A stretch of 64,000 nt of DNA from Camelus dromedarius. Its lineage: Eukaryota. Shown here piece by piece: positions 3,551-61,749 of this stretch. The notes below the pieces were generated by a model, which worked only from the letters and a program-made list of their open reading frames with translations, was not told the DNA's origin and ran no database searches. The position numbers and the translations under genes are program-made. The stretch spans positions 15,128,001-15,192,000 of the forward strand of contig NC_087436.1 in the NCBI RefSeq assembly GCF_036321535.1. Direction: 5' to 3'. Within the stretch, counting starts at the first letter, position 1. Every line of letters starts with the position of its first letter.

Positions 3551-3680
3551 TTTTGTTGTTTTGGGGGGAGGTAATTAGGTTTATTTATTTATTATTATTT
3601 TATTTAATGGAGGCACTGGGGATTGAACCCAGGACTTCATGCATGCTAAGCATGAGCTCTACCACATTTTGACTCCTCCC
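3551..3680 (-). mobile_element. tRNA-derived SINE (camelid vic-1-like)
   Basis: Reverse complement of the tRNA-like head (gtggtagagc...gcttagcatgcatgaagtcctgggttcaatcccc, B-box GGTTCAATCC) and of the aataaacctaattacctcccc tail shared with other copies in this window. Confidence 0.9.
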
Positions 3681-4640: not shown

Positions 4641-4733
4641 TGGGGAAGGGGGAAGGGTATAGCTGAGCGGTAGAGCACATGCTTAGCATGCACAAGGTCC
4701 TGGGTTCAAACCCCAGGACCTCCATTAGTTTTT
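4641..4733 (+). mobile_element. tRNA-derived SINE (vic-1-like), short copy
   Basis: gggtatagctgagcggtagagcacatgcttagcatgcacaaggtcctgggttcaaacccc. TSD tttaaagggacagc (4627-4640) / tttaaaggtacagc (4734-4747). Confidence 0.9.
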
Positions 4734-21518: not shown

Positions 21519-22245
21519 CTTCCTAGATCATTTCCCTGTTTCCATCTTGCCCCACTCCAATCCAATCTGCAAGCAGCAGCCAAAATTAGCTTTGAAAAAC
21601 AAGCCAAACTTGCTAGAAGACTTTCACTGGGTTTCCACGGTACTCAGAACAAAAGCTGAGCTCCCTTAACACGTTTTGGCCGTGTTTTTTTTCTTCCTAT
21701 TACGTCGCTAGCAACTCTCCCATCAGTATCACCTTTCTCCCACACACACGTGTACCAGCCACACTAACCTTCTAATGTTCCTAAGAGGCCAGGCTCCTTG
21801 CCTCTGGGCCTTTCCATATATGCGTTTTTTCCAGTAAGAATGGGGAACACTACTTTTTATGTTGGCAGGATGCTTCTCAGACTTCTGATTTCAGCTTAAC
21901 TGTTACCTCCTCAAAGAGCTTTGCCCAGTTTTTTCAATTAAAATTAAGTACTCACTGTTTGCCTTGTCATTAACACCATGTTCTTTTCACTCATAGTACT
22001 TATTATGATCTGTAATCAACTATTTACACAGTTATTTCCTTTTATATTGTTCATCTACCTCCACTGAGGTATCAACTCCACAAGGCTAGGGCCCGTGATT
22101 GTTTTGTTCACAATGGCATCTCCAGCACCTTACACAATGCCTGGCACATATGTACTTATGGAATGAATTAATGAATTAACATACGTACTTATGGAATGAA
22201 TGAATGAATGAATGAACATTCGTATTTATGGAATGAATGAATGAG
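21519..22245 (+). mobile_element. L2 3' region with expanded tail
   Basis: catcttgccccactccaatcc...ttgttcac...catctccagcacct...tgcctggcacata...gaatgaatgaa. Confidence 0.85.
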
Positions 22246-23640: not shown

Positions 23641-24534
23641 ACCACAGGTAGAGATAACACTCCCAACCTTGCCATGGAATGAGACTCTGCCTTCACTTTG
23701 CCTTATCAAAAGTAATGGGGAATCTCCTCCACAGAGAATGTTTCTTTGATGATATCTGCAGTATGGGAAAGAAAAGGTCCTTTAAAAATGTATTGTATTT
23801 CAAAAAAAAAAAACATATTTCTAACTCTCTGTTTGGCGATGTAAGGGTTTTTACATCCTAGGCAATGCATCATAGTGCAACTCGGGTTAGATGAGAGATA
23901 AATGCATCTCTAAAGAAGAAGGAAGACTAGGAAAGGGAATGTGGAAGGGAGAAACAGTCTTGTTATCAGAGCTCCTCTGTTCAGTTTTAGAAAGAGTACA
24001 TACGAACGTTGAGGATCCAGACATACATTCCCTTTAAATCTAGGCATGCCTGTGTCTCTCTTGTAAAGTCTTTGTCTAACCCCAGATGAGAGCACCAGTG
24101 CCCTGTTGCTCCTGGGAGAGGTCTACCTTGGGCTGCAGACTGAACCAGATTCTCCCCTATGATGGATCCAAGCAGCTGGGGATGATGAAGGACCAGCCAA
24201 AGGTCCATGCCGCTCCTGCCTCTCATCTCCCGTGTCCAGAACCTGGGCAGTGGCCATAGGAGAGGGGAGTGCCATGGGACCTCTTACTGCTGCCAGTGGG
24301 AAGCAGTTATTCTGCACACTGAGAGATTGCTCCTTGTTGGGATGGCTAAAAGGGCGAGTGTGCTGGCCTCTTGGCACCTATTTTCAGCTCAAAATAAACC
24401 CATGTTCTAATTTTACTTTCCAATACTTAGTCTAAATGAGTCAAAGCAATTTGTTTCAGTAAATGTCAGCTTTGCCCAGAAACTAAGTCAAAGTGGGATA
24501 CAAAATGGAACCTAGATTTTTCATTTGTTTAGTA

Positions 24535-34647: not shown

Positions 34648-34800
34648 GGGGGTTGGGGTATAGCTCAGCAGTAGAGTGCACGCTTACCATGCAGGAGGTC
34701 CTGGGTTCAATCCCCAGTACTTCCATTAAAAATAATACTAATAAAAAAAACAAACAAAAATGCCAATTATTTTTTAAAAATTAAAAAAAATAATAAAAGC
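34648..34800 (+). mobile_element. tRNA-derived SINE (vic-1-like), preceded by a long A run
   Basis: ggggtatagctcagcagtagagtgcacgcttaccatgcaggaggtcctgggttcaatccccagtac plus an A-rich tail. Confidence 0.9.
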
Positions 34801-36248: not shown

Positions 36249-36401
36249 GGGGAGGGTATAGCTTAAGTAGTAGAGCACATGTATAGCATGCATGTGGTCC
36301 TGGGTTCAATCCCCGGCACCTCCTCTTAAAAAAATAAATAAATAAAAATAAGTAAACCTAATTACCTCCCTTGCCCCCCCCCCAAAAAAAAAGCAGGGGG
36401 T
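36249..36401 (+). mobile_element. tRNA-derived SINE (vic-1-like) inserted in a MIR
   Basis: Head gggagggtatagcttaagtagtagagc and tail aaacctaattacctccc. TSD ggtgtgaggatttg (36235-36248) / ggtgtgaggacttg (36402-36415). MIR-like sequence at ~36110-36245. Confidence 0.92.
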
Positions 36402-39860: not shown

Positions 39861-40204
39861 AAATGAACCTATTTTTTAAAATAATAAATTAATTTTTTTT
39901 TAATTTTAAATGCTGAAAAGGACTAGAAGGATCCTGAAGTCAGTTCTTAATATCCTTCAAATTAAAAGGGGGCCAGAGCCAGGGTACAAATGAAAGTTCC
40001 AGCGCAAATGATTCAAATTCTCTTAAATTCATTTTCACCATCACTTTGTTCTGTGTCCCAGCTTTGCAATATCTGCTAATCTGGAGATCTGAATTTCTGT
40101 CATGCTACTATTTGCAACCTACAAATGAACTGACAGATTCAGTGATTCACAGAGCTCCTTTCATCAGCTAGAGGCCCTCTTATAAAATGTGCCTGGGAAG
40201 GACA

Positions 40205-40950: not shown

Positions 40951-41465
40951 ACTCAGTTCACTACATACTGAGCCCCAACACGTGCCAGGCACTCTTCTGG
41001 TTCCGGGGATCTATCAACAAACAAGACTATCGAAACTCCGCGGGAGCTTAGTCCTAGTGTGGTATGGAAGGGAGCTAATATTCAGTACTATAAGCTTCTT
41101 GTCCATTTTGTTTTGTTTCACTGGAGGATGAGCCTTTTGGCATGTCTGCTCCTGGGCCAGGAATCATCAAGGCGTGGCCAGCTTTGTGTCCCCCGGCCCC
41201 GGGCTCACTAATAAGGGAGGGAAGGAGGCATCTTCTCTCTTTTCTGGGAATCATTGAATCTCCGTCAATTCATCGGCAGATTGCAAGGAGTGAAATGACA
41301 GAAATTCAGATCTTCAGATTAGCAGACGAGGCAAAGCTGGGACGCAGAACAAATGACAAGTGACAGTGGAACTGGGTTTGGGAGAATTTGAATCATCTAG
41401 GCGAGAGAGCCAGCAGATGGCATTTGCCTGCTCAGTGTAGAAAATGGGTCACGGCTCCCAGGCCC

Positions 41466-41501
41466 GAGCCCTACACAGCCTCGGAGCCCTACACAGCCTC
41501 G
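41466..41501. repeat. Perfect 18-bp tandem duplication
   Basis: gagccctacacagcctcg twice. Confidence 0.97.
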
Positions 41502-42153
41502 GAGACCTGCAACAGGGGCAGAGCCTTCCAGCCACAGGCGGGTCACAGAAGAACTCCAGTGGATTTATGGGGCGCCGAGGTGCTGACATATGGGGGGCCT
41601 GTGCTCACGGCAGGATGGCAAACCAAGCTCAGGAGGGTGTGGTCTGTGCTCAGTGAGGTTCCTGACCTTGGTCCCCCCTGCGTAGATGGAGGGCCCCCAC
41701 CACATGGCAGAGGAGCCTTCATGAGGGTGGCCAGAGGGCACAGTGCTGCTGCGACCACGGTGCCTGAAAGCAGGGGCCTGCAGAGGACCTGGATGGACTG
41801 TGCCAAGGTGGCCCTGGGTCCCCATGACAGCCTGGAACAGGGAACCAGCAGCCTTCATCCCAGCTGAGCTCTGCTTCCTGAAAAAGCCTCCCTGACCTTG
41901 TTCCTTGATCTGTGATGTCGGCATTATACCTGCCCGACTTATGTCACAGGATTGTAGTGAGCTTGGAAAAAATAGCAAGTGTAAAAAAAAAATTAACAAT
42001 AAATAAGCCTGACTCAGGGAAGATGGGTAGGATTTGGTCTTGTCTTGAGCAAGGCCATGCCACTCTGTGTTTGGGGAATGCACAAGGATAAAGACATTCT
42101 CAGAACCACGCCAGAGATTGTCTCCAAGGTTGAAGTAAGACAAGATTCACTGT

Positions 42154-42919
42154 GAGGAAAAAGAAACTGAAAAATGGGTTTCCAAGCTCAGAGTGAACAT
42201 TTCAGAGGCCCCACTTCTCCCAGGAGGGTAATAAGTGTAGGAAATAAATTACGGTTGAAGATGATTGAGGCAGAGTATGAATTAGTCCTAAAGACACCTA
42301 CATACCTTTCAAATGAAAGGGAATAGAGAGATTAAGAAAGAAGTCAAGGAAGGGCAGTGAGAAAGGGGGCAAGGATGCCTCAGGTCAATGTTGAAAAACA
42401 AACATGTTCTTTACCCAAATGGTTGTGATCTCAGGTGTGGGGTTGGCACAGGCAGGTGAGTCCCCAGTCCAACTCTCTCTCCCTCTGACCTGTCAGTGGT
42501 GGTCTCAGAGATGCCTGCCGTTGGAAAGGAGTCAACAAGCATCTCCTAATGGTACCTCGGCTCCCCATGGACCATCCCCTGTCTCTATAACTTTTATTTC
42601 AAGCTCCTTTCTCTCCGGGACCTGCAGGGCACCAAGAGAGGAGGGGTGGGTATCATAGCGAGGTGGAAACAACTTTGCACATCATTGACCTGAGGCATCC
42701 TTGCCCCCTTTCTCTCTGCCCTTCCTTGACTTCTTTCTTAATCTCTCTATTCCCTTTCATTTGAAAGGTATGTAGGTGTCTTTAGGACTAATTCATACTC
42801 TGCCTCAATCATCTTCAACCGTAATTTATTTCCTACACTTATTACCCTCCTGGGAGAAGTGGGGCCTCTGAAATGTTCACTCTGAGCTTGGAAACCCATT
42901 TTTCAGTTTCTTTTTCCTC
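42154..42919. repeat. Long inverted repeat with 237-bp arms (42154-42390 and 42683-42919) and a 292-bp spacer
   Basis: Base-by-base reverse complement comparison gives 236/237 identity, with the single mismatch at 42358/42715. Confidence 0.97.
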
Positions 42920-42921
42920 CA

Positions 42922-42969
42922 GCCTCCAGCCCCAACATGTTTGTTTTTCAACATGTTGGGGCTGGAGGC
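42922..42969. repeat. Perfect 20-bp stem / 8-nt loop hairpin
   Basis: gcctccagccccaacatgtt (42922-42941) and aacatgttggggctggaggc (42950-42969). Confidence 0.97.
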
Positions 42970-43544
42970 AACAACAACAACAATGAAATTTATGTGATCC
43001 ATGAATGCACAGAACTGGGTAGCAAAACCAGATACATCATCTCTCTTGATAAAGCAAACTCACCAACTGCCACCCGGTAAGTATGAGGAGTATTGGTCTC
43101 CACCTGGATGCACCCTCCCCTCCTCAGAATGAAGTGTCTGGATGCCTCTGAGAATTATGCAAATACAGGCAGTATTTATACATCCGGGTGATTCATCAAG
43201 GATCAGAAGGTGCCTCCAGGCATGAATTACAAGGCCTCTAAAAGCAATGACTCTTTTATAGGGTTTTAGATTATGGTGATTTTCCATAAATCCTGCCCAA
43301 GTCACACGACAGGCCAAGAGCAATTAACATTAATTAAACAATCCCCATAAAGAGGTTGTTGTGCTGACACGCTGATAACCTGTAAATGCACTTAGCCCGC
43401 GAACATTCTCGAGGGCTTGCCTGCCATGGCACCACGAGCAATGGGCCGGCTCCTCCTGCCCCAGTGACAGCACGCACCTGAGTGTAACAGCTCAGCTGGA
43501 ACACACTGGAACCCGGCCCCGGGGACCACCGTCCTTCAAGCTGA

Positions 43545-43635
43545 ACCACCTGGGTGGGGATCCTGTTAAAATGAGATTCTGATTCAGCCGCTCTGGGGTG
43601 GAGCCTGAGAGTCTGTATTTCTAACAAGCTCTGCC
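43545..43635. mobile_element. MER5-type MITE fragment
   Basis: tgttaaaatgagattctgattcag...tctggggtggagcctgagagtctgtatttctaacaagctc. Confidence 0.8.
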
Positions 43636-44492: not shown

Positions 44493-44636
44493 GGGGGAGG
44501 GTATAGCTCAAGTGGTAGAGTGCATGCTTAGCATGCATGAAGCCCTGGGTTCAGTCCCCAGTATCTCCTCTAAAAATAAATAAACAAATCTAATTACTTC
44601 CCCACCCCCACCCCCCCAAAAAGAAAAAAACAAAAC
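44493..44636 (+). mobile_element. tRNA-derived SINE (vic-1-like)
   Basis: gggggagggtatagctcaagtggtagagtgcatgcttagcatgcatgaagccctgggttcagtcccc plus tail. Confidence 0.93.
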
Positions 44637-50499: not shown

Positions 50500-50680
50500 A
50501 ATTTTTTTAAAATTGAAGTATAGTTGATTTACAATATTGTGTTAGCTTCAGGTAGACATCAAAGTGATTTGGCTACACTTACATGTATGTATCTTTTTTT
50601 GTTCTTTTCCATTATAGCTTATTGCAAGATATTGAATATAGTTCTCTTTGTGCTATACAGTAAATCCTTGTTATTTAAAC
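50500..50680 (-). mobile_element. Short L1 3' end
   Basis: attgaagtatagttgatttacaatattgtgttag...caagatattgaatatagttc...tgctatacagtaaatccttgtt. Confidence 0.9.
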
Positions 50681-51212
50681 AACCCTTTTCTGATTATAAA
50701 AGTAAATCCTTGTTATTTAAATCATCCTTTTCTGATTATAAGAGTAATAACTCTCATTGACAATTTGAAATATAAAGAAATTTTAAATCACTCATAGAAG
50801 CACTCAGATAAAACATTTTAGTATATTTGCTTCTAAAAGTAAATATAGGACATAGTTCCATACCTATATTACATACATTTTACAAAACTTAGATTAAACT
50901 CACCATCTCTTATAAACTACATTTTTAACTCAAAAATATATTGTGAGCATTTTACCATGCAATTATTTTCCCAAGATAGGAATTTTAATGGCTAATTTTT
51001 AGTTTCCTAGTTTATAAATACTATAGCCATTCATTAATCCTCCATTGTTATGTGAATTATTTCTGGTATTTTGCTATTAAAAGTGCTCTGATTAATATCC
51101 TCATATGTTCTTGTGCATAATTCTTTATGAACACCTCTAATACCTTAGGATAAATTTTAGATTTAGAACTGCTGAATCAAAGAATATGCACATTTTAAGA
51201 CTTCTGGTACTT

Positions 51213-61589: not shown

Positions 61590-61749
61590 TTGATGTGGTT
61601 TTTTTGTTGTTGTTGTTTGTGTGTGTGTGGGGGGGGTGATCATTAGGTTTTTATATATTTATTTATTTTTTAATGGAAGTACTGGGAATTGAACCCAGGA
61701 CCTCGTGCATGCTAAGCATGCATTCTACCACTGAGCTATACCCTCACCC
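61590..61749 (-). mobile_element. tRNA-derived SINE (vic-1-like)
   Basis: Antisense head (gaacccaggacctcgtgcatgctaagcatgcattctaccactgagctataccc). Perfect 15-bp TSD ttctttcatcatttt (61575-61589 / 61750-61764). Confidence 0.95.

Follow-up and report, generated by a model that had tools for sequence, protein, structure and literature searches.

A '3-1-4-2' template switch is described as leaving one spacer enclosed by two inverted pairs that are offset from each other (PMC5453318), and the same arrangement is also reported to arise from inversions initiated by staggered breaks (PMC1885836). The tracts copied during catalogued switches are mostly short, with a median of 12 nt and a maximum of 128 nt in one catalogue (PMC7954356); a further study gives 318 nt as the longest tract and reports that local switches can chain (10.1101/2021.11.26.470150). 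On a larger scale, inverted duplications of less than 1 kb copied within 5 kb are reported to represent 54% of the sequenced human inversion variants, typically without a tie to retrotransposition, so that the inverted repeat analysed here, which the original prediction presented as unusual in kind, does not appear to be so (PMC4617611).

The repeat lies in a window of 64 kb, corresponding to the whole stretch of DNA analysed. Direct comparison of the two arms confirmed the geometry first proposed, at the same coordinates (Table 1): each arm is 237 nt long, the two are reverse complementary at 236 of 237 positions and they are separated by a spacer of 292 nt (42391-42682). The sole mismatch opposes a T at 42358 to a T at 42715 (plus strand). 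Among the 51 inverted pairs of at least 30 nt present in the window, this pair is both the longest and the most exact, the remaining pairs among the 25 longest listed being 72-90% complementary, and it is not a product of chance. The arms had been predicted to be unique and devoid of transposon hallmarks. They are indeed unique within the window, where a word-7 blastn search of the region 42001-43100 detected no further copy of an arm (no match outside of the structure was better than E 0.2), and none of the hallmarks tested (target-site duplication, second copy in the window, Rfam family) was found. In particular, the arms are not bordered by a target-site duplication of 2-12 nt and no Rfam family reaches its gathering score in the region 42-43 kb. 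The structure extends past the end of the right arm at 42919, where the original prediction had placed its limit, to position 42969.

Table 1. Coordinates of the features of the inverted repeat, of the candidate pseudo-exon and of the tRNA-like matches in the 64-kb window.
Feature	Positions	Strand	Description
Left arm (A)	42154..42390	+	Putative source copy, collinear with the upstream flank; 236/237 complementary to 42683-42919
Left arm A, base composition	42154..42390	+	Purine-rich, as is the upstream flank
21-bp reverse copy, proximal junction	42388..42408	-	Exact reverse complement of 42934-42954
Spacer core	42409..42682	-	274 nt, single copy; probably inverted relative to the pre-event order, as suggested by topology
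Right arm	42683..42919	-	Reverse copy of A, putatively the new one; a single substitution (42715/42358)
Distal junction	42916..42933	.	4 shared bases (CCTC), 7-nt slippage duplication, then reverse copy from 42950-42969
Hairpin	42922..42969	.	Perfect 20 bp, 42922-42941 with 42950-42969, 8-nt loop; two copies of the palindrome AACATGTT
Candidate pseudo-exon	42923..43076	+	Acceptor made up of the junction and the right arm's pyrimidine-rich end; consensus-like donor at 43076
Segment C	42934..42954	+	Putative source copy for the 21-bp pair; runs on into the downstream flank
tRNA-like Rfam matches	3608-3676, 4653-4724, 34654-34725, 36252-36324, 44497-44569, 61674-61745		

The exact matches listed for the region 41500-43600 include three elements that were absent from the original prediction and that are all linked to the ends of the arms: a second inverted pair of 21 bp, a 20-bp hairpin and a 7-nt slippage. 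The 21-bp pair is exact; its left member shares three nucleotides (ATG) with the left arm at the inner end of the latter, and its right member begins 14 nt past the right arm's outer end. When up to three mismatches are allowed, this 21-mer has two matches in the window, for a mean of 0.01 in shuffled sequences, and 0 of 100 shuffles contained two. The slippage is visible at the distal junction, where the segment 42916-42924 recurs as 42923-42931. Folded as DNA, the hairpin reaches -26.1 kcal/mol, a value equalled by none of 200 shuffles, whereas, once the added arm is left out, the remaining part is no more stable than shuffled sequences (37 of 200 being as good). The 8-nt palindrome AACATGTT is present at positions 42401, 42934 and 42950. 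We also observed that the sequence preceding 42955 (in 42938-42958) resembles a 3' splice site with a T-rich tract, in which the final AG is replaced by AT. The base of this AT ahead of 42955 belongs to a 10-nt palindrome (42949-42958), and an older acceptor may possibly have been lost there through a palindrome-perfecting change.

We consider it rather probable that the repeat is the scar of a single recent germ-line rearrangement in non-coding DNA, devoid of function, and about 500 bases of non-coding DNA were probably flipped by one DNA-copying accident. The presumed order before the event would have been flank, A, X, C, flank, where X stands for 42409-42682 in reverse complement. Along the plus strand, A would have been copied up to a strand switch at the far end of C, mediated by three shared bases. 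C, X and A would then have been copied backwards over 532 nt (42388-42919), followed by a jump via four shared bases onto the reverse of the downstream flank, a slip of 7 nt and a return to the start of C via the 8-nt palindrome. This direction of synthesis is putative; in the mirror reading, on the other strand, the fold-back at the pair of palindromes would come first. The product would be an inverted spacer with an inverted pair of 237 bp and another of 21 bp around it, accompanied by the 20-bp hairpin, and the present sequence would run from A through the 532-nt reverse copy and two short segments taken in reverse from the downstream flank to C and the flank itself.

A greedy parse under the A-X-C order identified four junctions sharing 3, 4, 3 and 8 bases, these counts being dependent on the modelled order, and a single substitution; the additional cuts of the parse at 42715 and 42721 are an effect of this substitution. 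Given the same order, the 532-nt reverse copy and the short fold-back account for all bases but one. Under this model, the copied segments, the exact positions at which they end and the bases shared at the junctions are observed. For comparison, random junctions drawn 200,000 times in the same region share at least three, four and eight bases in 5.9%, 2.0% and 0.06% of the draws, respectively. FoSTeS/MMBIR-type events are typically marked by bases shared at the junctions and by short inserts copied from a template. The locus presents both, in the four junctions and in the 20-bp reverse insert, and it is more readily read as the outcome of replication than of end-joining.

The inversion of the spacer is a putative part of this reconstruction. 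Strand skew weakly favours it: the AT skew is -0.09 in the spacer core versus +0.33 in A and +0.14 downstream, and the purine fraction is 0.47 versus 0.66 and 0.53. In a control performed over the window, a middle segment agreed with both of its neighbours for AT skew in 468 of 680 tests and for purine fraction in 505 of 681, the tests being overlapping. Two features of the 3-1-4-2 switch are present at the locus, offset inverted pairs in the order A, C', A', C and new sequence templated nearby (all but one base, under the modelled pre-event order), and the inversion of the spacer, which would complete the assignment to this class, is putative and favoured weakly by skew, as well as by parsimony.

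One competing account would leave the spacer in its original orientation, a reverse copy of A and short templated pieces having been inserted after it. Such a plain inverted duplication, in which less than 1 kb is copied to a place no more than 5 kb away, would fall into the most frequent type of human inversion variant (PMC4617611), and it also provides a complete parse of the sequence (models 2 and 2b). However, this parse requires one more switch, its junctions share 0, 4, 3, 7-8 and 4-5 bases, one of them having thus no shared base at all, and it does not explain why the 21-bp piece starts exactly at the end of the arm; we regard this account as quite unlikely. [quoted passage not shown] This process yields the same two pairs and has been proposed for Drosophila inversions with flanking inverted duplications of median size 321 bp (PMC1885836), but staggered breaks alone produce neither the reverse-copied 20-bp arm nor the slippage, which need synthesis on another template, and we hold this origin to be very unlikely. 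A MITE with long terminal inverted repeats would match the 766-bp size and the terminal repeats in outline. This possibility was rejected on the missing target-site duplication; moreover, the structure is present in a single copy within 64 kb, and both the hairpin and the second pair extend across what would be the end of the element. The related idea of an old repeat homogenized by gene conversion is at odds with the other repeat pairs in the window, which are only 72-90% alike, and both versions strike us as scarcely credible. No plasmid match was found, and a pattern designed on the side of the junction retrieved 0 loci in metagenome contigs, as did a control pattern from a SINE of the window, which makes this collection uninformative for the locus.

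It is also conceivable, although unlikely, that animals keep the simple order and that the structure was created during assembly or library preparation, either as a mis-oriented contig of ~530 bp with unmerged overlaps or as a chimeric fold-back molecule. A mis-oriented contig with unmerged ends would give the same two offset pairs. Among 172 sampled words of the region 41700-43500, a share of 0.96 is held by 14 DNA or unlabelled rows of the index and of 0.95 by one, whereas none reaches 1.00; these 15 rows correspond to one organism, 12 samples and eight studies, in a total of 24 rows listed, 20 of which contain some share of the words. Five RNA-type rows contain 0.05-0.26 of the words (one of them, at 0.07, is on record as RNA) and four rows are at 0.00, two of them from a second organism; neither set bears on the question. 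In the modelled pre-event order, 102 of the 31-nt words would be missing: the proximal junction accounts for 27 of them, the substitution for 31 and the distal junction for 44. The loss of ~7 sampled words, a figure read from rounded shares, can be compared with the 9.9-11 expected if the junctions and one arm variant were absent (P(<=7) of 0.14-0.22). The ceiling of 0.96 fits equally well a private or rare allele, an artefact, or a fixed allele accompanied either by two or three substitutions of a private kind or by words that the index lacks, and the word shares are therefore ambiguous. Several observations speak against an artefact: the window contains 0 N bases, the arms differ at one base, all junctions present shared bases, which points to a molecular event, and the 8-nt fold-back and 7-nt slip are far shorter than the overlaps used by assemblers, although a chimeric library molecule could make them.

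If the repeat indeed originated in a single rearrangement, its age can be estimated from the divergence of its copies. Substitution rates of 1.5-3e-9 per site per year were assumed, and one difference in ~267 duplicated sites corresponds to 0.6-1.3 My (95% interval, about 0.02-7 My). The event could thus be roughly 1 My old, and far younger if the substitution arose within the event itself. This estimate supports the very recent origin that had been proposed from the near identity of the arms. The alternative proposal, homogenization of the arms by gene conversion, becomes superfluous, since the junctions bear the sharp mark of one copying event. The predicted duplex would be near-perfect because the repeat is young, and the locus, if real, would show that near-perfect inverted repeats unrelated to transposons require neither conversion nor selection.

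The RNA corresponding to 42140-42990 is predicted to fold with -594.5 kcal/mol for the plus strand and -599.8 kcal/mol for the minus strand, for means near -254 kcal/mol in shuffled sequences; 0 of 20 shuffles folded as well on each strand. The long stable duplex that characterizes hairpin RNA and endo-siRNA loci is therefore predicted at this locus, over 237 bp and on either strand, if it is transcribed. A functional or selected RNA, in the form of a transcribed, edited or diced dsRNA or of a new exon gated by structure, nevertheless appears highly improbable to us. It would be favoured by this duplex and by the strong acceptor located beside the junction with a donor 154 nt further on, and 7.8% of human intergenic inverted duplicates are reported to be expressed (PMC5398296). 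On the other hand, the same study reports less support for function in the human class with the longest arms (PMC5398296), a gene, a CpG island and an RNA family were looked for nearby and none was found, and youth by itself accounts for the identity of the arms.

The putative exon was noticed as the best acceptor-donor pair among 42 rows listed for both strands, using a simple weight matrix. It starts 3 nt after the right arm. Its acceptor is new, the pyrimidine tract being derived from the reversed purine-rich start of A and the AG from the junction, and the best acceptor ahead of the donor at 43076 scores 10.9 now versus 7.1 in the modelled pre-event order. Equally strong acceptors number 21 among 4707 on the plus strand and 33 among 4579 on the minus strand; equally strong donors number 6 among 3011 and 4 among 3398, respectively. 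The coincidence of acceptor and donor was spotted after the fact, and pseudo-exons are common. The 50-aa frame of the exon has no mammalian-like protein match, with one weak hit of low identity (33%, E 2.7e-4) among 1.84 billion proteins. There is, in our opinion, only a very slight chance that one replication accident built a strong 3' splice site before an existing donor and at the same time buried this acceptor in RNA structure, creating a newborn, polymorphic and structure-gated exon if a plus-strand transcript crosses the locus. In that case, the pyrimidine tract would lie inside the 237-bp duplex, and the AG and the first bases of the exon inside the 20-bp hairpin. Inclusion of the exon would then be gated by RNA structure (ADAR, helicases), provided that the plus strand is transcribed. 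If this were true, the comparison of carriers with non-carriers would offer a natural test of the tolerance of mammals to a fresh and perfect dsRNA that is not derived from a transposon.

More broadly, the window looks intergenic or deep-intronic. None of the 303 frames scanned reached a Pfam cut-off (all 34 frames of at least 110 aa, 266 of the 267 frames of 62-109 aa and, in addition, three exon candidates); below this floor of 62 aa, short coding exons may be present. The sub-threshold matches to NRG2_N (E 0.046), CoV_ExoN (E 0.023) and MSL2-CXC (E 6e-4) were treated as chance; the last one corresponds to a cysteine-containing frame at 23709-23909 on the minus strand (20.3 bits for a cut-off of 26.7). 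No 500-nt bin passed the CpG island screen. The only Rfam matches in the window are six tRNA-like ones, all copies of one short repeat family (Table 1), which we take to be tRNA-derived SINEs and not tRNA genes.

Other duplications are present in the window. An older inverted pair (40008-40153 and 41243-41396), with 78% identity over 154 aligned bases (E 3e-28), lies upstream of the young repeat at a distance of about 0.8 kb. Its two members resemble an ancient LINE relic, and they probably represent an older local inverted duplication, since they seem too alike for two independent old insertions. We also noticed tandem duplications at 50659-50747 (42 bp, 2.1 copies, 91% matches), which is fairly young, at 41466-41508 (18 bp x 2.4, 96%) and at 22146-22244 (37 bp x 2.8, 87%).

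The original prediction also suggested a hairpin-prone fragile site. This suggestion is weakened by data on inverted Alu repeats in yeast, for which a 200-bp spacer is reported to lower the rearrangement rate ~20-fold compared with a 12-bp spacer, an effect that is missing in long single-stranded regions (PMC10164571). By analogy, the 292-nt spacer should damp DNA instability at this locus, long single-stranded regions excepted.

Among known systems, the locus resembles most the four-point 3-1-4-2 switch (Loytynoja and Goldman, 2017; PMC5453318) in its offset inverted pairs, in its putatively inverted spacer and in the copied tract that covers both switch points; it differs from the switch as described there in the return, which would be indirect here, via a fold-back and a slip. 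The 532-nt tract exceeds both the maximum of 128 nt in one catalogue (PMC7954356) and the 318 nt of the longest tract in the other (10.1101/2021.11.26.470150). The locus also resembles the 'Inverted Dup' and complex inversions of the 1000 Genomes structural variant map, with less than 1 kb of unique sequence reversed within 5 kb, but the second, shorter pair and the probable inversion of the spacer distinguish it from a simple 'Inverted Dup' and bring it closer to the complex class (PMC4617611). It shares with the staggered-break inversions of Ranz et al. (2007; PMC1885836) the reverse duplication of both breakpoint regions and a similar duplication size, whereas the inversions described in that work are chromosome-scale and the present locus has a 274-nt spacer and templated extra sequence at one junction. 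Unlike the products reported for ODIRA and small inverted triplications (PMC10766186, PMC13334657), it has no DUP/INV/DUP arrangement and A is present in two copies only. As in hairpin RNA and endo-siRNA loci derived from inverted duplicates (PMC5398296), transcription would produce a long near-perfect duplex, which is here predicted from sequence.

The locus is most likely a further case of a known class of mutation, presumably young and neutral, and it would acquire greater importance only if transcribed. If real, it would be a clean instance, and a long one, of the rarest four-point template-switch product, including a chained fold-back, and could be used as a lineage or population marker. 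Its 532-nt tract is long for the template-switch catalogues cited above and ordinary among the human inversion variants of PMC4617611, and the locus, if real, would be a textbook case bridging the catalogues built at the scale of bases and the rearrangements that occur at the scale of kilobases.
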